From Mayamaea pseudoterrestris (taxonomy: Eukaryota), in the NCBI GenBank assembly GCA_027923505.1, contig BROI01000014.1, positions 248,001-312,000 of the forward strand: DNA of 64,000 nt. Direction: 5' to 3'. This document shows, one piece after another, positions 19,834-35,010 of the stretch. Position 1 is the first letter of the stretch. Each line of letters opens with the position of its first letter. The translations under genes and the position numbers were made by a program. A model generated the notes under the pieces. It saw only the letters and a list, made by a program, of their open reading frames with translations, did not search any database and was not told the DNA's origin.

Positions 19834-20103
19834 TGCTGAGAATCGGTGATTAAACAGGTGATCCTCAGTACTATGGCCTACATCCCAGGGCATTGGTAAA
19901 GATGCGGGATCGACTGGCTGCGTTGCAATGAACAGGACAGTTAGCTATAGAGACTCGGAGACACTCTTGGAGAGGTCAAGATTCCAAGAGTTACGGCGGT
20001 CGCTTAGGATAGAATAAGCTCACTCTTTTATAGCGGATCTTTTGCAAGCGAATAGGAGAGGTTTATATCGTAAATTACAAGTACATTTGGAGCAATCTCA
20101 GCA
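19834..20103 (+). repeat. 5' LTR of copia element
   Basis: 270 bp with TG..CA ends and an 8-bp terminal inverted repeat. Near-identical to 25219-25488 and 32469-32738 (one substitution seen near the start). Confidence 0.95.
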
Positions 20104-20138
20104 TACCTTAAGGTAGCCTCGGAGATACCCGAGTCAGC

Positions 20139-21161
20139 ATGGCTGAACCAGCCCAAGGAATCGTTCCTGCAAGGACTGACGAGGAGCGATGGAAAGATGA
20201 GCGCTGGAACAAGAAGCCTGCGGCGATCCCCAAGTTGGATAAAGACAAGAAGTTTTGGACTTGGAAGATGGAGATCGAGGCGTGGCAAGTTGCGCATGAC
20301 TTGGACAAGGTAATGGATCCAAGCGGATGGGCGGACCTGCCGACGCGAGAAGAACAGCCAAATCAATCGTACGCCAACAGGCGAGCCGTCAAGATGAACA
20401 AGGTAGCCATGGCGCAGTTAATCATGGCGCATGGCGACGGAGACAAGGGAGCGGAGTTCCTCTTGATCATTACGGAATCAAGGACGGAAGCGTGGCCGAC
20501 GGGCAAGGCAAGTGACGTCATGAAGAAGCTGATCGAACAATATCAGCCGACCGATCAAGTTGCCCAATTAAAGTTGATGGATGACCTTAGCAGTCTCTCG
20601 ATGCGAGACAGCCAAAATCCAACCAAGTTGTTCCTAAAGGTAGCAGAGCTGGAGAGCCGTCAAAGGCCAAAAGCTCGAGGAGCGTCAAGTCGTTCCTCAT
20701 ATCATCAAGGCCTTACCGGAGCGGTACAGCGGACGAGTGTCGGCCATGTTTGAAAAGCACAAGGAACTAACCAAAGCAATGATACGCGAAGGCGTAGAGG
20801 CAGAATATCGCCTCCAAGTGGCGAAAGGCGCCATCAAGGAAGACGACGATGAAGATGAAGATGAACAAGCTCTCTTTACTCAATCGTCGATCGGAAACCC
20901 CAAGGGCTGCTGGCTTTGCGGCAGCACAGAACACAAGAAGAAGGACTGCCCAAAGTATAAAGGGAACGGCGGCGGCGGCGGAGGCAACAGAAGCAGGTCG
21001 AAGAAAAGATTCCAAGGAACGTGCGACGAATGCGGAAAGCAAGGGCACAAGAAAGAAGACTGCTTTCATCTTGAGAAGAACGCCTCCAAGCGCCCCGCTT
21101 GGTTCAAGAAGATCTTGGAGAAGAAGAATGAGTCGGCAAATGTCACTTGTGACGACGAATT
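20139..21161 (+). CDS. Copia Gag (frameshifted near 20660-20750; interrupted by the TRIM at 21162)
   Basis: FWTWKMEIEAW gag N-terminus; zinc knuckles CWLCGSTEHKKKDC and CDECGKQGHKKEDC. Confidence 0.85.
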
Positions 21162-21837
21162 TAGCAGGTTGCACACGAAAAACAGCAACCAGAGCGATAC
21201 CTTTACTTGTCATAGTGCATGGTGCCTTGTATGCAGCATATAGTACACTAGCAGACGGAAAAGTAGCAGCGTGTTTAGAGGTGATATAGCCGGTTATCCT
21301 TGGTTCGATTCCGAGGTGCGCTACTTTTAACGGCATAGTGATACTACTTTCTGTTGCATACCTGCTATGGTAGCGTCCCTATCGAGAGATCTGGACTGAG
21401 GCTGCTGGTTCGAGTTGCGATCGAATCAAGCGAAGAAAAAGCAAAAATTCACTGGTTGCACGGGTTTGTCACGAACGAACGATGGGGAGTCGCGGACCCT
21501 GGGGAGTGCACAAAGATGCGCCGAGCCCGAAACGCCGCAGGAAAAACTGAAAAGTGACATTCCCCCGCGAGACGAAAATGCCAGCTGAAACGGAAGACGA
21601 GTTAGCACTATGACGCGCAAAGCTAGGGGAGTAGCAGGTTGCACACGAAAAACAGCAACCAGAGCGATACCTTTACTTGTCATAGTGCATGGTGCCTTGT
21701 ATGCAGCATATAGTACACTAGCAGACGGAAAAGTAGCAGCGTGTTTAGAGGTGATATAGCCGGTTATCCTTGGTTCGATTCCGAGGTGCGCTACTTTTAA
21801 CGGCATAGTGATACTACTTTCTGTTGCATACCTGCTA
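21162..21837 (+). mobile_element. 676-bp non-autonomous LTR element (TRIM-like) with a tRNA-like cassette in its LTRs, nested in copia gag-pol
   Basis: Direct repeats at 21162-21367 and 21632-21837 (206 bp, TAGCAGGT..ACCTGCTA). TSD AATT at 21158-21161 and 21838-21841. PBS-like TGGTAGCG at 21368; purine tract AGGGGAG abuts LTR2; 264-bp non-coding interior. Confidence 0.92.
21259..21328 (+). ncRNA. tRNA-like Pol III cassette inside the TRIM LTR (also at 21729-21798, 28472-28541 and 28942-29011)
   Basis: B box GGTTCGATTCC (21302-21312) in a T-arm CTTGG-TTCGATT-CCGAG. Flanked by a perfect 9-bp inverted repeat AAAAGTAGC/GCTACTTTT ending in T4. Too short for a full cloverleaf. Confidence 0.65.
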
Positions 21838-24800
21838 AATTCTTCATCATGGCAACCAAGGGCGTCGCGGAGGTCGACGACGAGTTGTGGTTTGCCGAAA
21901 CGGTGCACGAGCGCCATAACGAAGTCAAAAGAAGCAATGTATGAGACAAGGGCAGCAACAAGCGTCGATAAGATCAAAGTCGGGAACAGTGAATAGCGAC
22001 ATCCCGAGCTTGTTGGAAAGTTGCGAGGCACAATCGTGGATAAGGACGGCAAGAAGGTTGGAAACTTGTCGTTGGATCGAGTCAGTTACTCGGAGTCAGC
22101 CGCGGGCAACCTCATTCCAGTCGGAAAGATGATAAAGGAAGGTTGGACGCTGAAGCAGTCAATAGATGGACTAGAGTTAAGCAAAGGAAAGCGCAAGTTA
22201 GTCTTCGATGTGACGGCAAGTCGGCAGCGGAGTCTTCCACGCTATGCGAAGTCAAGAGGACGCCGACGACGGCAGAACAAGCAACAGTCGCGACAACGCA
22301 AACAGAGTCGTTTCTTACCAACAAGTGCATGAAGAGTTTGGCCACATGGGCAAAGCAGCGACTCGGCGACAGCGAAGCACTTAGGATGGACGCTAACTGG
22401 AAAGATGAATCCATCGTCTCTTCTTGCGTAGCGTAGGCGCGCCAGAAGGATATCGCTCGGAGACCAGCCGAGAAGGCAAAGACACTAGGACGGCGCATCT
22501 ACTTGGACTTGACACGCCACGAGATAAAAGAAGGCAAGAATCTGCCAGGCCAAGTTGAGCGGTCGATGCATCGTGGACGAGGCGACAGGATTCAAAGTTG
22601 TCGACTTCTTCGCAACCAAGAACGCAATGGTGGAACCAACCTGAACCTGCTTAGAGAATGGAAGCACAAAGGAAGGAGGTTGAGTTTTCTAGGATGGATA
22701 ACGCTGGCGAGAACAAGAGTCTTGAGGCAGCCAAGGCAGAGGGACTCGTCAAGCGCATTGAATGGACAGCGGCAAACACGCCGCAAACAGAACCTCAAGG
22801 CAAAACCTGCTGGCACACTCAAGGGCGTTCAAGAGCTATAGCATACAGAGCAAACGTACCAGAGAAGCAGAGGCAGAAGTTCTTTGGCCAAGGCTAGTAA
22901 AGCATGCTAGCAAGTTGGATGGACTCACCATGGTCGAGTTGAATGGGGAAATGAAAACACGCTATGAGCACTTCGAAAAGATTCCACGCTTTGTGAAGTA
23001 CATGAGGCGTTGGGGCGAGGCGTGCGTGCTGACGAAAGGTGTCAAGAAACCGGGAATGGAATTTGACAAAGGCGCGATCGGCATGTTGGTAGGCTTTCGG
23101 ATGACCATGAGGGGAGGACGTCTATCAAGTTTGGAATCCCAAGACGAATAGAGTTGCAGAGGTTAGAGATGTAACGTTCTAAACAAGTGATTTCCAAGAA
23201 ACGATCAAGGAGATAGCCGACTTAAAAAGGAGAAGGAAGGCATCGATTGGGATCTTGACACCCAGAGAGGTGCGACTCACACGCCGCCAGCGGCGTGAGG
23301 AAGAGGAGAGTGTCAATGGTGGCCGTGACAACGTGGCATCAGCAAACGAGCGAGCTGTCACAAAGATTGACCATGGGAAGGAAGAACAATAACTCGATCC
23401 GGCGTTGTAGTACCAGGCAACGATTGATCGGGCAAGAAGTGGCGCTGGCGTATCAGCTGGCGACCCAAGAATGCGTGTGGCGATGCTGGACTGTGAGCTT
23501 ACGCTCAACGGGCAATCATCGAGGAGATGGAGGAAGGCGAGTGCTACGCCCGGCGCCGCGCGGTCGCTCGTTGGCGCAGGGGATTGGCGATGGCCACATT
23601 GGGCGCATACATCAGAGCTACAATAAGGCAACGAAGTTCAACGAGGCAATGGCGAAGGGACCAGTCGCTGAATGGCAGAAGGCGGTTGACGACGAGCGAT
23701 GATCGATGCTCAAGTACAAATGCTTCAAAGAAATCCCACGCTCGCAGCTTCCTGAAGGAAGAAGCTGATCGACCACGACATGGGCAATGAAGCAAAAAGG
23801 CATACGGAACAAAGCGAGCAAGAATGGCTGGTCAGGGTCCAGCAGATCGAAGGAGTCCATTGCGATCCCAAGTCGGTGTCGGCGCCTGTCGTGAATCTAT
23901 CGACGACGCGCATCATGTTGGTATTGATGTTGATGGCACGCTGGGACGACGCACATTGTCGACGTGCGAGGGAGCATTCTTGCAAGGCAAGTTCAACGAT
24001 GAAAAGATTTACATTAAGATACTACAAGGATTCGAAAAGCATTATAAAGCAGACAGCGTGTTGCAGCTGTTGGCGCCAGTGTACGGATTGATACAAGCGG
24101 CGTACTGTTTTCTATTTGGTGTTGGTCAGGCGTTCGACAACAAGGATACGGAAGGAGCAAGGCCGATCCATGCCTCTATTATCAATGGGGGGTTTACAAG
24201 GATTACATCTTTGGTCGAGTCATACGGATGACTGCTTCGTCGGAAAGGATATCATCACAGAAGAACAAATTCATGAGCGAACTCGACTTGCGAGGACATT
24301 GGCGAGTTGAAAGAGCACATCGGCTGCAAGATCGATATCAACAAGGAAGAAGGATGGTTGTAAGATAACTCAACTGATGGCAATTCAAAGACTCAAAGAC
24401 GGTTCAATATACCCGACGAGGCTCGATGAGGAGAGGCTTCCGGCGTCACCGGGAAGCAAGTTAAAGAGCGACGAAAACAATCGTTGGAGCGCAGGAGCAT
24501 CACAAGTTTCTCCAGCGGCGTTGGCATTGTTCAATGGATTAAAAGAGGCTCGAAAGACCGAGATAAGCAACGCTGTTAGAGACGTTGCGAAGGCGTCTAC
24601 CAAGGACAGGGCGCGTGAGCGAACCATCGAATCATGCGCTACCTACGCGAGGACTCCGGAGCGTGGACTCGTCCTCCAAGCCATCGAGGCAATGGGATGG
24701 CACACCAAGCTTTAAGTTCAGATTGAAAGTGATTACGGACTCATCATACGCGTCGGATCCAGACACAAGAAGGAGTCCAGGAGGCTACAGCACGTTTCTA

Positions 24801-25218
24801 GAGGGGCCATTCGTTCAATACCCTCAAAGATGCAAGACTTTGTCACGCTGTCGCCCACGGAGGCGAGTTAGTGGAGATGACGAACGGAGCGCGCGAGCTG
24901 TTGAGCCACAAGCGTTACTGGGAGTCGATTGGATTACAAGTCGAGCTCCCAATGAAAGTTATAGGAGACAACAAGGGCGCGTTTGATCCTAACGAACAAT
25001 TGGTCTGACGGCCGGCAAGACGCGTCATATTCGATGCGATATTATTCCTTCGAGAGTTGAAGGAGGAAACGATTATAGACATTGAATGGATTGGAACCGA
25101 CGACAATTGCGCCGATATCTTTACAAAGAATCTGGGCGTGAAGGCGTTTAACAAGCACGCAAAGGTGTTCGTCGGCGACGATGAGTACTTTGAAGATTAA
25201 GTACATCGGATCAGGGAG

Positions 25219-25488
25219 TGCTGAGAATTGGTGATTAAACAGGTGATCCTCAGTACTATGGCCTACATCCCAGGGCATTGGTAAAGATGCGGGATCGACT
25301 GGCTGCGTTGCAATGAACAGGACAGTTAGCTATAGAGACTCGGAGACACTCTTGGAGAGGTCAAGATTCCAAGAGTTACGGCGGTCGCTTAGGATAGAAT
25401 AAGCTCACTCTTTTATAGCGGATCTTTTGCAAGCGAATAGGAGAGGTTTATATCGTAAATTACAAGTACATTTGGAGCAATCTCAGCA
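25219..25488 (+). repeat. 3' LTR of copia copy 1
   Basis: 270 bp, preceded by a short purine tract and followed by the GCGCG TSD. Confidence 0.95.
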
Positions 25489-26156
25489 GCGCGTACGCTC
25501 CACTTTCAATGCTCGATTCGTGTCCTAGCAAACATTGCAGCGCTGCCGTTCAAACAGCTTCAACAACGGCAACAAGAGCCACCGACAGACCCACTATTCC
25601 AGAGCTCGAACACTACTAGTGGCAGGACCAGTACTTTCGCATAACCACGAAGATTTCATTGCCGTCTTTGACCATGGTGTCAAGGCGATTGCTTCGCATC
25701 GCTCAGCGATATCGATAAACTTTTACATGATCGTTTGCGTCCATACTAAGGCGGTGACCAAAACTGTCCGCCATCGGAAACAATATTTTCGTCGGAGCAA
25801 GTACTTGTTGCCATTCAGCAGGAACTCAAGCAACGTATCGATATTTGCTTGCTGCGTGATGACCGGCTCGACCGTTGATTGTCGTGCGACTCGAATCAAG
25901 CCACCTTGTTGATCGCATGGACTCCGCGTTTATCGAAATTGGGGTAGCAAAACACCTGCATTCTCAAAGGGTTTGAGAGCCCACATTATACTGCCTGATG
26001 CCTGAGCCTGAGTGGATTTTTACACGATTTTGATTTTGCTTGAGGAGCATTACATGGTGTTTATAAAGACAAGCATAATGAAGTATGGAAGATTTGAATG
26101 ATTATAGCAAACAATGACTGATTATATACAGACCATTGTTTCTTTGCCAAGTATAC

Positions 26157-26603
26157 TCATCGTCGTCGCAGGCTGGACCAAACTCTTCGTGATCTGCGGG
26201 TGGCAGTTCGAAGAGCGTCGGACACAGCGGCTCTGGTAGGCCGAGAGCTTTGAAGCGCCAAACTTTCTGTTATGCAAAACATAATGTCATCGTCGGAACA
26301 TGTGGTTGACTCATCCGTTTCTGACTCCATTTCGTTGACCACCATCCACGCTTCAATTCTCGCTCGGAGTGATCGGTGGGATATAAGATCTTTTGGCCCA
26401 AGCGTTTCTCGAGTTAGTGGATTTGTATTGTTGTGGTTGATGAGCCATTCAAAGATTGCCGCTCGTTCGAAACACATGCTGGGATCTTTGTGACGACAGG
26501 ATCCTTCATAATTTCTTGCGTAATGGGGCAAAGGTACTCGTCTGGGACAGAAACAACTTGAAAAGGACTGCGGGAGTGGGGGAGCGAGTGTTGCTTGGCA
26601 CAT
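26157..26603 (-). pseudogene. Degraded duplicate of the U-box gene at 33490-33933
   Basis: FERAAIFEWLINHNNTNPLTRETL is retained, with indels relative to the second copy. Confidence 0.6.
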
Positions 26604-27177
26604 GATTAAGTTTGTAACTGGTGAACTGTTGGATGATCGGCAGTACTCCGTTAAGATGATGTGAGGGGAAAGAAAAACAAACCATCGAGCGACGATTTCC
26701 ACCTCGGACAAGTTGCTTTCGCTGACGCTCCCTGACAATTGTCCGTCAGTCACGAGGGTTATATCATAGTCGTGTATTTTTATTAGGCATATGTCATTCG
26801 GACAATATATATTTGTACATTGATAAACGGTGGGGAAACGCATCTCATTTAATCTAAAAGTCACTTTAACTACTCGTCGGAAATTACCATTGTGGCACTC
26901 CGAGAATCCCAAGATCCTCGGCGACACTCAAGAATTATCACGAAAACGAAAGTAACGACGGTAAACTCGCAGAGACACCTACGTCATTCGACGTCATTCA
27001 TGGATGACATCATTCTTGTCGCATCAGCAGCACAATTAAGTTCGAGGAGGAATTCAACCACACTCGTTGTATCGTCTCTTCCCTCTACAAAGACTCTGTA
27101 TTTCATTCACTTACGGGAGAAAGGAGTTGCAGTGGCTGTTCAAGTTTAAATCGGCACCAAAACTTGCCGTCAAGGAT

Positions 27178-30100
27178 ACACTCTTGGAGAGGTCAAGATT
27201 CCAAGAGTTCCGGTGGCGTACATGGATGAATAAGCTCACTCTTTTACTCTTGGATCTTTTGCAAGCGAATAGGAGAGGTTTATATCGTAAATTACAAGTA
27301 CATTTTGAGCAATCTCAGCATTACCTTAAGCTGTAGCCTCAGAGATACCCGAGTCAGCATGGTGAACCGGCCCAAGGAATCACCAAGGACTACGAGGAGC
27401 GAGTTGGAAAGATGAAGGCGGAACAAGAGCCTGGCCGCGATCCCCAAGTTGGATAAAGACAAGAGTTTTGGACTTGGAAGATGGAGATCGAGGCGGCAAG
27501 GGAGTTGCGCATGACTTGGACAAGGTAATGGATCCCAAGCGGATGGGCGGACCTCCCCGACGCGGGAAGAACAGCCAAATCAATCGAATGCAACAACAGG
27601 CGAGCCGTCCAAGATGAACAAGGTAGCCATGGCGCAGTTAATCATGGCTCATGGCTTAACGGAGACAAGGAGCGGAGTTCCTCTTGATCTTACGGAATCA
27701 AGGACGGAAGCGTACGACGGCGCAAGTGGCAAGTGATCGTCATGAAGAAGCTGATCGAACAATATCAGCCGACCGATCAAGTTGCCCAATTAAAGTTGAT
27801 GGACTGCAACCTTAGCAGTCTCTCGTGCGAGCCAAATCCAACCAAGTTGTTCCTAAAGGTAGCAGAGCTGGAGAGTCAGTTTCTAGCGTCGGGAGCAAAG
27901 CTCGAGGCGTCAAGTCGTTCCTCATATCATCAAGGCCTTACGGACCGGTACAGCGGACGAGTGTCGCCATGTTTGAAAAGCACAAGGAACTAACCAAAGC
28001 AATGATACGCAAGGCGTAGAGGCAGAATATCGCCTCCAAGTGGCGAAAAGGCGCCATCAAGGAAGACGACGATGAAGATGAAGATGAACAAGCTCTCTTT
28101 ACTCAATCGTCGATCGGAACCCCAGGGCTGCTGGCTTTGCGCACGCAGAACACAAGAAGAAGGACTGCCCAAAGTATAAAGGAACGGCGGCGGCGGCGGA
28201 GGCAACAGAAGCAGGTCGGAAAAAAGATTCCAAGGAACGTGCGACGACGCAGAAGAGGCACAAGAAAGAAGACTGCTTTCATCTTGAGAAGAACGCCTCC
28301 AAGCGCCCCGCTTGGTTCAAGAAGATCTTGGAGAAGAAGAATGAGTCGGCAAATGTCACTTGTGACGACGAATTTAGCAGGTTGCACACGAAAAACAGCA
28401 ACCAGAGCGATACCTTTACTTGTCATAGTGCATGGTGCCTTGTATGCAGCATATAGTACACTAGCAGACGGAAAAGTAGCAGCGTGTTTAGAGGTGATAT
28501 AGCCGGTTATCCTTGGTTCGATTCCGAGGTGCGCTACTTTTAACGGCATAGTGATACTACTTTCTGTTGCATACCTGCTATGGTAGCGTCCCTATCGAGA
28601 GATCTGGACTGAGGCTGCTGGTTCGAGTTGCGATCGAATCAAGCGAAGAAAAAGCAAAAATTCACTGGTTGCACGGGTTTGTCACGAACGAACGATGGGG
28701 AGTCGCGGACCCTGGGGAGTGCACAAAGATGCGCCGAGCCCGAAACGCCGCAGGAAAAACTGAAAAGTGACATTCCCCCGCGAGACGAAAATGCCAGCTG
28801 AAACGGAAGACGAGTTAGCACTATGACGCGCAAAGCTAGGGGAGTAGCAGGTTGCACACGAAAAACAGCAACCAGAGCGATACCTTTACTTGTCATAGTG
28901 CATGGTGCCTTGTATGCAGCATATAGTACACTAGCAGACGGAAAAGTAGCAGCGTGTTTAGAGGTGATATAGCCGGTTATCCTTGGTTCGATTCCGAGGT
29001 GCGCTACTTTTAACGGCATAGTGATACTACTTTCTGTTGCATACCTGCTAAATTCTTCATCATGGCAACCAAGGGCGTCGCGGAGGTCGACGACGAGTTG
29101 TGGTTTGCCGACAACGGGTGCACGAGCGCCATAACGAAGTCAAAAGAAGCAATGTATGAGACAAGGGCAGCAACAAGCGTCGATAAGATCAAAGTCGGGA
29201 ACAGTGAATACGTACATCCCGAGCTTGTTGGAAAGTTGCGAGGCACAATCGTGGATAAGGACGGCAAGAAGGTTGGAAACTTGTCGTTGGATCGAGTCAG
29301 TTACTCGGAGTCAGCCGTCGGCAACCTCATTCCAGTCGGAAAGATGATAAAGGAAGGTTGGACGCTGAAGCAGTCAATAGATGGACTGGAGTTAAGCAAA
29401 GGAAAGCGCAAGTTAGTCTTCGATGTGACGGTACAAGTCGGCAGCGGAGTCTTCCACGCTATGCGAGTCAAAAGGACGCCGACGACGGCAGAACAAGCAA
29501 CAGTCGCGGCAAACGCAAACAGAGTCGTTTCTTACCAACAAGTGCATGAAGAGTTTGGCCACATGGGCAAAGCAGCGACTCGAGCGACAGCGAAGCACTT
29601 AGGATGGACGCTAACTGGAAAGATGAATCCATGCGTCTCTTGCGGCGTAGCGAAGGCGCGACAGAAGGATATCGCTCGAAAGGAGCCAGCCGAGAAGGCA
29701 AAGACACCAGGACGACGCATCTACTTGGACTTGACGACGCCAAAGGATAAAGAAGGCAAGAATCTGCCAGGCAAGTTGAACGGTCGATGCATCGTGGACG
29801 AGGCGACAGGATTCAAAGTTGTCGACTTCTTCGCAACCAAGAACGCAATGGTGGAACCAACCTTGAACCTGCTTAGAGAATGGAAGCACAAAGGAAGGGA
29901 GGTTGAGTTTCTAAGGATGGATAACGCTGGCGAGAACAAGAGTCTTGCGAGGCAAGCCAAGGCAGAGGGACTCGTCAAGCGCATTGAATGGACAGCGGCA
30001 AACACGCCGCAACAGAACCACAAGGCAGAAACCTGCTGGCGCACACTCAAAGGGCGTTCAAGAGCTATAGCATACAGAGCAAACGTACCAGAGAAGCAGA

Positions 30101-32738
30101 GGCAGAAGTTCTTTGCAAGGCTAGTAAAGCATGCTAGCAAGTTGGATGGACTCACCATGGTCGAGTTGAATGGGGAAATGAAAACACGCTATGAGCACTT
30201 TGGCGGAAAAAGATTCCACGCTTTGTTAAGTACATGAGGCGTTAGGGAGCGGGCGTGCGTGCTGCGAAAGGTGTCAAGAAACCGGGAATGGAATTTGACA
30301 AAGGCGCAGTCGGCATGTTGGTAGGCTTTCCGGATGACCATGAGGGAGACGTCTATCAAGTTTGGAATCCCAAGACGAATAGAGTTGCAGGAGTTAGAGA
30401 TGTAACGTTCCTAAACAAGTGGTATTTCCAAGAAACGATCAAGGAGATAGCCGACTTAAAGGAGAAGGAAGGCATCGATTGGGATCTTGACACCCCAAGA
30501 GGTGCGACTCACGACGCGCAAGCCAGCGACAGTGAGGAAGAGGAGAGTGTCAATGGTGACGTTGACAACGTGGCATCAGCAAACGAGCGAGCTGTCACAA
30601 AGATTGACCATGGGGAAGGAAGAACAATAACTCGATCCGGGCGTTGTAATACCAAGGCAACGATTGATCGAAGCAAGTAACGCTGGCGTATCAGCTGGCG
30701 ACCCAAGAATGCGCGTTGGCGATGCTGGACTGTGAGCTTACGCTCAACGCGGCAATCATCGAGGAGATGGAGGAAGGCGAGTGCTACACGCCGGCGCGCG
30801 ACGAGTTAGCGCTCGTTGGCGCAGGGATTGGCGATGGCATTGCGCATACATCAGAGCTACAAGTAATGAAGTTCAGCGAGGCAATGGCGAAGGGACCAGT
30901 CGCTGAATGGCAGAAGGCGGTTGACGACGAGCATGATCGAATGCTCCAAGTACAAACGCTTCAAAGAAATCCCACGCTCGCAGCTTCCTGAAGGAACGAA
31001 GCTGATCGACACGACATGGGCAATGAAGCAAAAGGCAAACGGAACAAAGCGAGCAAGAATGGCGGTCAGGGGATTCCAGCAGATCGAAGGAGTCCATTAC
31101 GATCCCAAGTCGGTGTCGGCGCCTGTCGTGAATCTATCGACGACGCGCATCATGTTGGTATTGATGTTGATGGCACGCTGGGACGCGCACATTGTCGACG
31201 TGCGAGGAGCATTCTTGCAAGGCAAGTTCGAAAACGATGAAAAGATTTACATTAAGATACCACAAGGATTCGAAAAGCATTATAAAGCAGACAGCGTGTT
31301 GCAGCTGTTGGCGCCCATGTGTACGGATTGATACAAGCGGCGTACTGTTTCTATTTGGTGTTGGTCAGAGCGTTCGACAACCAAGGATACGGAAGGAGCA
31401 AGGCCGATCCATGCCTCTATTATCAATGGGGCGAACAAGGATTACATCTTTGGTCGAGTCATACGGATGACTGCTTGTCGGCCGGAAAGGATATCATCAC
31501 AGCGAAGAACAAATTCATGAGCGAACTCGACTGCGAGGACATTGGCGAGTTGAAAGAGCACATCGGCTGCAAGATCGATATCAACAAGGAAGAAGGATGG
31601 TTGAAGATAACTCAACCAGTCGCAATTCAAAGACTCAAAGACGAGTTCAATATACCCGACGAGCTCGATGAGGAGAGGCTTCCGGCGTCACCGGGAAGCA
31701 AGTTAAAGAGCGCGGGAAACAATCGTTGGAGCGCAGGAGCATCACGAGTTTCGCAGCGGCGTTGGCATTGTTCAATGGATTAAAAGAGGCTCGAGACCAG
31801 AGATAAGCAACGCTGTTAGAGACGTTGCAAGGCGTCTACAAGGACCAACGGAAGCGCATGTGAAAGCGAACCATCGAATCATGCGCTACCTAACGAGGAC
31901 TCCGGAGCGTGGACTCGTCCTCAAGCCATCGAGGCAATGGGATGGCACACCAAGCTTTAAGTTCAGATTGAAAGTGATTACGGACTCATCATACGCGTCG
32001 GATCCAGACACAAGAAGGAGTCCAGGAGGCTACAGCACGTTTCTAGAGGACGCGCCAATCGTTCAATGCTCAAAGATGCAAGACTTTGTCACGCTGTCGC
32101 CCACGGAGGCGGAGTTAGTGGAGATGACGAACGGAGCGCGCGAGCTGTTGAGCCACAAGCGATTACTGGAGTCGATTGGATTACAAGTCGAGCTCCCAAT
32201 GAAAGTTATAGGAGACAACAAGGGCGCGTTTGATCTAACGAACAATTGGTCGACGGCCGGCAAGACGCGTCATATTGACGTGCGATATTATTTCCTTCGA
32301 GAGTTGAAGGAGAAAAAGATTATAGACATTGAATGGATTGGAACCGACGACAATTGCGCCGATATCTTTACAAAGAATCTGGGCGTGAAGGCGTTTAACA
32401 AGCACGCAAAGGTGTTCGTCGGCGACGATGAGTACTTTGAAGATTAAGTACATCGGATCAGAGGAGAGTGCTGAGAATTGGTGATTAAACAGGTGATCCT
32501 CAGTACTATGGCCTACATCCCAGGGCATTGGTAAAGATGCGGGATCGACTGGCTGCGTTGCAATGAACAGGACAGTTAGCTATAGAGACTCGGAGACACT
32601 CTTGGAGAGGTCAAGATTCCAAGAGTTACGGCGGTCGCTTAGGATAGAATAAGCTCACTCTTTTATAGCGGATCTTTTGCAAGCGAATAGGAGAGGTTTA
32701 TATCGTAAATTACAAGTACATTTGGAGCAATCTCAGCA
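27178..32738 (+). mobile_element. Ty1/copia retrotransposon, copy 2 (5' LTR truncated)
   Basis: Protease WFADNGCT; IN HEEFGH..CVSC and RMDNAGEN; RT VRGFQQIEG, DVRGAFLQG, YGLIQAA and HTDD; RNase H TDSSYA..RHIDVRYYFLRE..ADIFTKNL. 3' LTR at 32469-32738 follows PPT AGAGGAGAG. Confidence 0.93.
28375..29050 (+). mobile_element. TRIM-like element, second occurrence (within the duplicated block)
   Basis: LTRs at 28375-28580 and 28845-29050 with TSD AATT; appears identical to 21162-21837. Confidence 0.92.
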
Positions 32739-33200
32739 GCGCGTACGCTCCACTTTCAATGCGCGATTCTCGTCCTACGTAGCAAACATTGCTGCGCTGC
32801 CGTTCAAACAGCTTCAACAACGGCAACAAGAGCCACTTACAGACCCATTATTCCAGAGCTCAAAAATTACTAGTGGCAGGACCAGTAATTTGCGCATAAC
32901 CACGAAGATGTCATTGCCGTCTTTGACCATGATGTCAAGGCGATTGCTTCGCATCGCCCAGCGAAATCGATAGCCTTTTACATGATCGGCGTTCGCGTCC
33001 ATGGCTGAAGTGGTGGCCAAAACTGTCCGCCATCGGAAACAATGTTTCGTTGGAGCAAGTACTTGGTGCCGTTCGGCAGAACTCAAGCAACGTACGATAT
33101 TTGCTTACTGCGTGATGACCGGCTCGACCGCTGATACTCGTGCGACTCAAATCAAGCCACCTTGCTACTAGGCAGTGCAACACGAAGCTTGTCACTCCAT
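32739..33200 (+). pseudogene. 3' part of local family member 3, disrupted by the copia insertion (5' part 19799-19833)
   Basis: Translation across the empty site reads MQRSYASTGAARTL…IIPELKNY*WQDQ*FAHNHEDVIAVFDHDVKAIASHR, matching the PEL..W.D..F..IIAVFDH motif of the 17154 and 18366 genes. Confidence 0.65.
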
Positions 33201-33489
33201 TGAACGAGCTCCGCGTTTATCGAAATTGGGGTAGCAAAAGCACCACCCGCATTCTCAAAAGGGTTTGAGAGACCGGCAAACATTTGCGAAAGGTACTGCC
33301 TGATGCCTGAGAGCCTGAGGAATTGGATTTTTTACAGCGAGCGAGTAACTTTTGATTTAGCAGGAGCATTACATGGTGTTTATAAAGACAAGCATAATGA
33401 AGTATGGAAGATTTGAATGATTATAGCAAGAAACAATGACTAGATATTATATACAGGAAGCGCATTGTATTGCTTTGCCAAGGTATGGC

Positions 33490-33933
33490 TCATCGTCGTC
33501 GCAGGCTGGACCAAACTCTTCGTGGTCTGCGGGTGGCACTTCGAAGAGCGTCCGACACTGCGGCTCTGGTAGGCCGAGAGCTTTGAAGCGCCAAACTTTC
33601 TGTTATGCAAAACATAATGTCATCATCGGAAGATGTGGTGGACTCATCCGTTTCTGACTCCATTTCGTTGACCACCATCCACGCTTCAATTCTTGCTCGG
33701 AGTGATCGGTGGGAAATAAGATCTTTTGGCCCAAGAGTTTCTCGAGTTAGTGGATTTGTATTGTTGTGGTTGATGAGCCATTCAAAGATTGCCGCTCGTT
33801 CGAAACACATGCCGGATCTTGTGACGACAGGATCCTTCATAATTTCTTGCGTAATGGGGCAAAGGTACTCGTCTGGGACAGAGACAAGCTTGGAGCTGCG
33901 GGAGAGTTGGGGAGCGAGTGTTGCTTGGCACAT
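33490..33933 (-). CDS. Small U-box domain protein
   Basis: VPDEYLCPITQEIMKDPVVTRSGMCFERAAIFEWL..NPLTRETL is a canonical U-box. Confidence 0.85.
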   Translation of the reverse strand: MCQATLAPQLSRSSKLVSVPDEYLCPITQEIMKDPVVTRSGMCFERAAIFEWLINHNNTNPLTRETLGPKDLISHRSLRARIEAWMVVNEMESETDESTTSSDDDIMFCITESLALQSSRPTRAAVSDALRSATRRPRRVWSSLRRR

Positions 33934-34527
33934 GATAAAGTTTGTAACTGGAGTATGCAGACTGTTGGATGATCGGCAGTACTCCAGTAAGGTAGATTGT
34001 GAGGGAAAGAAAAACAAACCATCGAGCGACGATTTCCACCTCGGACAAAGTTGCTCGCTGACGCTACGCCTGACGTTTGTCCGTCAGTCACGAGGGGTTA
34101 TATCATAGTCGTGTATTTTATTAGGCATATGTCATTCGGACAATATATATTTGTACATTGATAAACAGTGGGGAAACGCATGCGTCATTTAGGACGTCTA
34201 AAAGTCACTTTAAATATATGCCCGTCCGAAATTTACCACACCAAATTGGCACGTGCGAATGCTAACGATGCCTCGGCGACACTCAAGAGCACCACGTCGG
34301 TGACCTTTGTACTGCCCTGTTCATTCTCGACGCCAGAGAAAACAGAAAGTAACGACGGTAAACTCGCAGAGACACGCTACGGTCATTCGACGGTCATTGC
34401 CAATGCACGAGTGGATGACATCATTCTTGTCGCATCGGCAGCACCCAATTAAGTTCGAGGAGGAATTCAACCACACATCATCGTCGCTCGTCTCTTCCTC
34501 TACAAAGAGGCTCTATCAGTATTTCCA

Positions 34528-35010
34528 ATGTCACTATTTGTAGGAAAAGGAGTTGCAGTGGCTGTTCCAAGATTTAAATCGGCACTCAAGAAACTTGCCG
34601 TCCAAGGATCGGAAGCGCTCAAGCCGCAGCATGTTCCATCAGCCGACATGGCCTCGAGGAGTCACTGGAAACCAGCTCTCATTTCCAATCGCATTGCCAG
34701 TGTTTTGAGAAAGCAGGCAGTGCGGGAAGGAACATATGGGTCGTTTAATACTGAAACGTTGACAGGTTGGGATGCACAGTGGGATGTTGAACTTGCTTCC
34801 ATTCGTTCACAAGGAAGTGGCCGCATTCAAATCCGGCCACCAAACAAGACGAGTCGACAGCGAACGAGAGAAAAGCGAGCAACCAAGATTGAAACAACGA
34901 TGCAGGACATGAATGAGCGTATCGAAAGCTATTACCAGGAGAAGCACAGCGCCAAACCGGCCAAGACGTTTGAGAATAATTACAAGCAGCAAATGATTAT
35001 CAAGAGGTAG
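34528..35010 (+). CDS. Probable mitochondrial ribosomal protein mL59/MRPL25-like
   Basis: Basic 160-aa ORF; HWKPALISNRIASVLRKQAVREG resembles the mL59 motif. Confidence 0.55.
   Translation: MSLFVGKGVAVAVPRFKSALKKLAVQGSEALKPQHVPSADMASRSHWKPALISNRIASVLRKQAVREGTYGSFNTETLTGWDAQWDVELASIRSQGSGRIQIRPPNKTSRQRTREKRATKIETTMQDMNERIESYYQEKHSAKPAKTFENNYKQQMIIKR

Follow-up and report, generated by a model that had tools for sequence, protein, structure and literature searches.

A putative Helenus-type TRIM with tRNA-like long terminal repeats inserted in a copia element of a diatom-like genome

A 676-bp element interrupts a Ty1/copia retrotransposon in the stretch of DNA analysed here, which is 64 kb long and is called the window below. 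Because contigs from public sequencing runs contain the empty insertion site, cover the element at high depth and carry other sequence to the left of its long terminal repeats (LTRs), we identify it as, most probably, a mobile, multi-copy, non-autonomous LTR element (TRIM). The first-pass annotation of this DNA had already read it as a TRIM, and the anatomy of the element together with these three observations supports that identity. Two features lie beyond that annotation, namely an identical second copy of the element at positions 28375-29050 and a probable tRNA-like module in each LTR. With the module, the closest known kind of element is no longer a plain TRIM but a Helenus-type TRIM ('TRIMp3'), and we consider it likely that the element is a TRIM of this type which, in a diatom-like genome, has inserted where gag meets protease in a Ty1/copia element.

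The element consists of 206 + 264 + 206 bp and is read on the plus strand, as are its parts, its second copy and both copies of the host copia. Two direct repeats that are 100% identical, the 5' LTR at 21162-21367 and the 3' LTR at 21632-21837, enclose an internal core of 264 bp (21368-21631). Each LTR starts with TAGCAGGT and ends with ACCTGCTA and is therefore of the TA..TA type. At its 5' edge, abutting the first LTR, the core carries TGGTAGCGTCCC (TGGTAGCG followed by TCCC; 21368-21379), a putative primer-binding site (PBS) that is complementary to the tRNA 3' end ...GGGACGCUACCA of the presumed primer. At its 3' edge, abutting the second LTR, a short polypurine tract (PPT), AGGGGAG, can be read at 21625-21631. 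Immediately outside the element, AATT is duplicated at 21158-21161 and 21838-21841, and the insert-free joint described below has four letters that fit both sides, as expected of a target-site duplication. The identical repeats with their ends, the length of the core, the sequence directly after the first LTR, the AGGGGAG and the AATT had all been described before, and our coordinates agree with that description to the base. Within the 64-kb window, a 40-nt probe taken from the start of the LTR gave four matches, compared with none in 100 shuffles; the PBS motif was found nowhere other than in the two element copies; and a low-stringency BLAST of the element returned only itself and copy 2, the host copia having no similarity to it. 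The empty target reads TGACGACGAATTCTTCATCA (21150-21161 joined to 21842-21849). Of its 20 positions, 16 fit a palindrome built around GAATTC, with AATT at the centre, and the element may prefer GAATTC-like palindromes.

Judged by its sequence, the element is without gag or pol coding capacity. The longest stop-free stretch within it is 136 codons, on the minus strand, and the core has no protein family match. A Pfam search of the minus-strand frame at 21426-22052, with E values of up to 1 accepted, returned zero families, and the frame at 20767-21336, which overlaps the element, gave only DUF7319 (E 0.3), whose score of 10.9 bits lies below the cut-off of 27. An antisense frame of 166-208 codons covers the 3' LTR and extends over part of the core (21426-22052, and also 28639-29139, minus strand); it is probably a chance product of the purine-rich plus strand.

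The interrupted element is assigned to Ty1/copia on its RVT_2 domain, an integrase located ahead of the RT, LTRs with TG..CA ends and a 5-bp duplication. Pfam families were found in four of its eight frames, including RVT_2 (E 4.6e-21 and 2.2e-08) and Pol_BBD, the Pol beta-barrel domain (1.1e-08). Copy 1 of this copia spans 19834-25488, with LTRs at 19834-20103 and 25219-25488, degenerate frames and the duplication GCGCG, which confirms the TG..CA ends and the 5-bp duplication that had been ascribed to it earlier. Copy 2 spans 27174-32738, with a truncated 5' LTR at 27174-27320 and a 3' LTR at 32469-32738. Both belong to a 7.2-kb unit that occurs as a tandem pair (19957-27173 and 27174-34609) and comprises most of the copia and 1.7 kb of its downstream flank, within which lies a U-box-like frame (26157-26927); the two units abut midway through an LTR. 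The second copy of the inserted element occupies the same site in the duplicate unit, is 100% identical to the first over 676 bp and is bordered by AATT at 28371-28374 and 29051-29054. As the second 3' LTR is also directly followed by GCGCG, the common flank and the tandem duplication mean that the two element copies are a single insertion locus seen twice and go back to one event. The host copia has no TGG... after its 5' LTR, where TACCTTAAGGTAGCCTCGGAG is found instead (20104-20135 and 27321-27350); this sequence may pair inside a tRNA, at its anticodon loop, as happens in Ty5, copia and the fungal partners of Helenus. For the neighbouring MLH1 gene, the best named relatives are all diatoms, at 33-41% identity, and its nearest relatives are at 57-59%; the genome is therefore diatom-like, but at some distance from the model species.

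Removal of the element with one AATT fuses ...NVTCDDEF to FIMATKGVAEVDDELWFA in one reading frame in both copies. The first-pass annotation had claimed that excision restores the host frame, and for the step from TCDDEF to FIMATKGVAEVDDELWFA this holds; the ADNGCT quoted with it, however, is not found at the copy-1 coordinates, where a loss of 2 nt located 60 nt downstream of the joint changes the reading to WFAETVHER... and leads to an early stop. Excised copy 2 forms a single open frame of 716 codons that continues through ADNGCT, and this peptide was found only in copy 2 (29014-30237) and in insert-free contigs.

Evidence that the element moves was obtained from the contigs of four public runs (X1, X5, X6 and X7), which were compared with positions 20700-22300 of the window. 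The existence of copia copies without the insert had been set beforehand as a test, and such copies are present: contigs of three of the four runs (X1, X5 and X6) join 21157 to 21838, with an exact skip of 680 bases and four shared letters (side 255 in X1, 133 in X5 and 33 in X6). Summed contig depth, which is not the same as copy number, was about 7 to about 100 times higher over the element than over the copia flank across the runs (964 versus 9 in X1, 38.8 versus 4.6 in X6 and 20.1 versus approximately 2-3 in X7), and in X5 it reached about 8,800-47,000 (about 2,300 in two bins) compared with 780 in the flank. In the same run, 107 contigs lay over the region and 64 of them fitted both LTRs. 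At 21157 and 21161, loose contig ends showed other sequence preceding the LTR, and the contigs of 436-500 nt that cover the element in X1, X6 and X7 had zero differing letters. No occupied junction at the 21158 site was found among the contig pieces listed from the runs, and the public-run contigs, in which other sites are represented by contig ends and depths, did not contain the full sequence of a copy at a second site flanked by a duplication of its own.

Several further observations were made in the public data. In run X5, another LTR copy is likewise preceded by GAATT. A loose end before 21633 in run X7 belongs to a diverged LTR copy that differs at 5 of 51 letters and is preceded by ...ACAGGGGGGAACAATAAC; this G-rich tract may represent the PPT of a relative of the element that is perhaps longer and comes from another organism in the study to which the run belongs. 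A metagenome scan with a 27-mer from the T arm and acceptor gave zero matches. The same scan with a 19-mer from the LTR end and PBS gave one match (L001, 488-506), which we rejected as a chance palindrome, GGGACGCCTGCTATGGTAGCGTCCC, in a GC-rich, bacterial-looking contig without LTR context.

The feature that sets this element apart from a plain TRIM is a stretch within each LTR whose sequence is probably tRNA-like; the assignment is kept at probable because Rfam gave no tRNA match. Under relaxed settings, ARAGORN called an 83-nt cloverleaf in all four LTRs (21242-21324 in the 5' LTR and 21712-21794 in the 3' LTR of the first copy) and made no other call in the 64 kb. The same settings gave four false calls when 3.2 Mb of random sequence was scanned and one in 3000 shuffles of the LTR, that is, a chance rate of about 1.25 per Mb, or about 3 in 10,000 per LTR, before the adjoining T4 run is counted. 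Default ARAGORN predicted no tRNA gene in the 64-kb window. The Rfam search found no tRNA at E values of up to 10, even with a 121-base query, and returned four and three weak, unrelated matches. The minimum-energy fold of 84 nt is not a cloverleaf, with a z value of 0.68 and 147 of 200 shuffles at least as stable. The T arm, CTTGG-TTCGATT-CCGAG, is canonical and includes the box B-type GGTTCGATTCC at 21302-21312; what we take to be the invariant residues of this arm (G53, T54, T55, C56, R57, A58 and C61) are all present, and the module also has U8, A14 and a GG in the D loop. It further displays a long variable arm, an 8-nt anticodon loop and an anticodon stem in which two pairs are G-T and one position is mismatched. 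Of the motifs given for Helenus in PMC10886601, box A (TRGCY...YGG) and box B (GGTTC), the former is matched in part, by TAGCA...CGG. T4 runs on the plus strand occur once per LTR, immediately 3' of the module (21325-21328 and 21795-21798), and not at all in the core; they may act as RNA polymerase III stops. The module points in the PBS-to-PPT direction. Taken as a whole, it is quite likely to be a decayed tRNA-derived unit, probably from a class II tRNA.

Two side observations concern the module. The hexamer TAGCAG occurs three times per LTR, at the LTR start (21162), at the box-A-like place (21249) and 15 nt further on (21264), and with these repeats the 5' acceptor strand of the tRNA-like fold could lie at either of two places. 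In addition, the first eight letters of the PBS (21368-21375) are complementary to the 3' end of the module (21317-21324) extended by CCA, as are 10 of the 12 last positions.

Other readings of the block have to be weighed against a Helenus-type TRIM. Both copia copies in the window have the repeat-core-repeat at the same place, as would be the case if it were an integral part of the copia family; these copies are tandem duplicates of one locus, however, and the restoration of the gag-pol frame by excision and the exact joint of 21157 to 21838 in contigs of three of the four runs make such an origin scarcely conceivable, with the proviso that the insert-free evidence holds unless the contigs represent another organism's copia. 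The TAGCAGGT/ACCTGCTA ends, which are not TG..CA, and the position of AATT at the centre of the 16/20 palindrome could also suggest a small, MITE-like DNA transposon whose terminal inverted repeats are 8 bp long and whose palindromic duplication is 4 bp. We regard this as very improbable, as the inverted ends are merely the termini of 206-bp direct repeats, and the tRNA-complementary TGG... next to repeat 1 and the purine run next to repeat 2 form the layout of an LTR retroelement; TA..TA is, moreover, a known rare LTR end type in plants according to PMC9804982. There is similarly little to be said for a retrozyme-like element living as a circular RNA of 470 nt (LTR + core). A 4-bp duplication is shared with plant retrozymes, as described in PMC5680766, and a contig of X1, at a depth of 964, joins 21631 back to 21162 (470 back). 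Such a back-joint is nevertheless expected of word-graph assembly for any LTR-core-LTR arrangement with 206 shared letters, X1 is not recorded as RNA, and neither a hammerhead nor any other ribozyme family was found in Rfam at E values of up to 10.

The reading closest to our own accepts the TRIM and disputes the module: a plain TRIM would be transcribed by RNA polymerase II, and the tRNA-like stretch would be a decayed captured fragment or a product of chance without a promoter role. The missing Rfam match, the absence of a thermodynamic signal and the degenerate anticodon arm are all in line with this, and the TTTT adjacent to the module would terminate a polymerase III transcript at about 85 nt. 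We nevertheless consider it unlikely, given the low false-call rate of relaxed ARAGORN, the perfect T arm with its adjoining T4 run and the orientation of the module along the PBS-to-PPT axis; furthermore, a tRNA-like LTR layout is already a described class (PMC10886601). The preferred reading thus remains a Helenus-type TRIM.

For a Helenus-type TRIM of this structure, the following life cycle can be proposed. The RNA would begin in the 5' LTR and terminate in the 3' LTR. Most likely, RNA polymerase III would transcribe from box A/box B, pass the first TTTT and stop at the TTTT of the 3' LTR; this route is modelled on Cassandra, and the tRNA-like part would provide the terminal redundancy. 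As a counterpoint, the TTTT next to the module would halt the transcript in the 5' LTR without read-through. The element RNA would then be packaged and copied in the particles of an autonomous LTR element, where a cellular tRNA with the 3' end ...CGCUACCA would anneal to the PBS, AGGGGAG would act as the plus-strand primer and the integrase of the partner would join the TA ends to a target cut with a stagger of 4 bases. Eukaryotic initiator tRNA-Met is marked by U72 facing A1 in combination with A73. The predicted primer tRNA, ...CGCUACCA, would have U72 and A73 and would in this respect be initiator-Met-like. ARAGORN found no gene for the primer tRNA in the 64-kb window.

With regard to the mobilizing partner, the first-pass annotation had favoured an autonomous family different from the surrounding copia. 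We likewise consider the host copia an unlikely helper, because its LTR ends differ, its duplication is 5 bp rather than 4 bp, its LTR is followed by another sequence and it is not similar to the element. No autonomous partner was found in the 64-kb window. As 4-bp duplications of Helenus elements accompany Gypsy partners (PMC10886601), we predict by analogy a partner of the Ty3/gypsy type. The element itself points to a still active autonomous LTR element in the genome with an integrase that tolerates TA..TA ends.

A bolder possibility is that the element is a self-sufficient unit in which the tRNA-like RNA of the LTR, cut by RNase P and RNase Z and furnished with CCA, would end in ...GCGCUACCA and prime reverse transcription at the element's own PBS, TGGTAGCG. 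If this were true, a self-priming element would carry both the promoter for polymerase III and the primer for its reverse transcription. The PBS, however, goes on with TCCC where the module RNA requires CACC, and we consider self-priming highly unlikely. In a lesser version, the element may represent a TRIM lineage that arose independently in diatoms, is active today, is driven by polymerase III and prefers GAATTC-like palindromes as targets.

The identity of the two LTRs had previously been taken as a sign of a very recent insertion. This dating is unsafe and LTR identity is no clock for this insertion, because the two tandem units have diverged to about 89-93% identity and yet share a perfect tract that spans the insert. 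Of 7521 aligned columns, 6727 are identical; the units differ by 405 substitutions (transitions:transversions 208:197) and 139 gap events, 102 of which are 1-2 nt long. The perfect tract measures 854 bp (21044-21897) and covers the element with 118 bp and 60 bp of flank, a second one of 297 bp lies over the 3' copia LTR, and the next longest is 143 bp. Independent insertion at the same site of both units was rejected as the sole explanation, as the 118 + 60 bp of flank are also identical and the neighbouring sequence is about 7% different. The 854-bp tract rather points to gene conversion between the units or to assembly homogenization by uneven long-read polishing, and the indel- and transversion-rich spectrum hints at the latter. 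On the left of the insert the insert-free contigs resemble unit 1, and on its right unit 2; this mosaic match indicates that each unit has private changes. That the family is young is better backed by the identical, high-depth contigs in several runs than by LTR identity. More generally, caution is advisable, since LTR identity cannot date insertions where local homogenization occurs.

The element also has practical consequences. Elements with tRNA-like LTRs inflate tRNA-gene predictions, and a young, high-copy element of 676 bp whose empty sites are clean lends itself directly to distinguishing strains by insertion polymorphism.

Among known systems, canonical TRIMs resemble the element in size, in an LTR of about 100-250 bp, in a PBS of the TGGTAGC... 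type, in the PPT and in being non-coding. They usually have TG..CA ends and 5-bp duplications and are without a small-RNA module. The duplication of 4 bp found here thus differs from the 5 bp usual in plant TRIMs. In Cassandra, transcription is proposed to begin at the 5S module of the 5' LTR and to extend to that of the 3' LTR (Kalendar 2008, as summarized in PMC10886601), and, as in the present element, each LTR contains a unit resembling a polymerase III gene with a terminator, a role that the TTTT would play here. The module is 5S-derived in Cassandra, whereas it is tRNA-like in our element. To our knowledge, Cassandra is restricted to plants and makes 5-bp duplications. Plant retrozymes, as described in PMC5680766, share the non-autonomous LTR layout, the 4-bp duplication, a tRNA-Met PBS and a structured RNA in the LTR; unlike the present element they have a hammerhead, and their LTRs are 300-400 bp long compared with 206 bp here. 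The rare TA..TA end type, its inverted pair and short LTRs recur in non-TGCA LTR retrotransposons (Ou and Jiang 2018, as summarized in PMC9804982), which are, in contrast, autonomous plant Copia elements.

The closest resemblance is to Helenus, the TRIMs of 311-1263 bp with tRNA-derived sequence in their LTRs, a PBS and a PPT (Kojima 2024; PMC10886601). Table 1 of that paper names only fungi, animals and Selaginella as hosts, and the duplications are 4 bp in animals and 5 bp in the fungal and Selaginella elements; nowhere does the paper use the terms diatom, stramenopile or protist. In open-access text, we found neither a TRIM from a diatom or other stramenopile nor any LTR element with a small-RNA module from these groups, and a Helenus-type TRIM from diatoms has not been reported in the open-access literature. 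A diatom case would carry the Helenus class to a third eukaryotic supergroup and supports the repeated, independent birth of this class. Our element is like Helenus in the probable tRNA-like part of the LTR with box A/box B motifs in sense orientation, the short non-coding core with PBS and PPT, a length within 311-1263 bp, a 4-bp duplication as in animals and a PBS directed against a tRNA 3' end. It is unlike the Helenus elements described there in its diatom-like stramenopile host, its TA..TA ends, its class-II-like module, which is too decayed for the Rfam model, and a PBS with eight contiguous positions complementary to the module 3' end plus CCA, where PMC10886601 found no such complementarity in Helenus.
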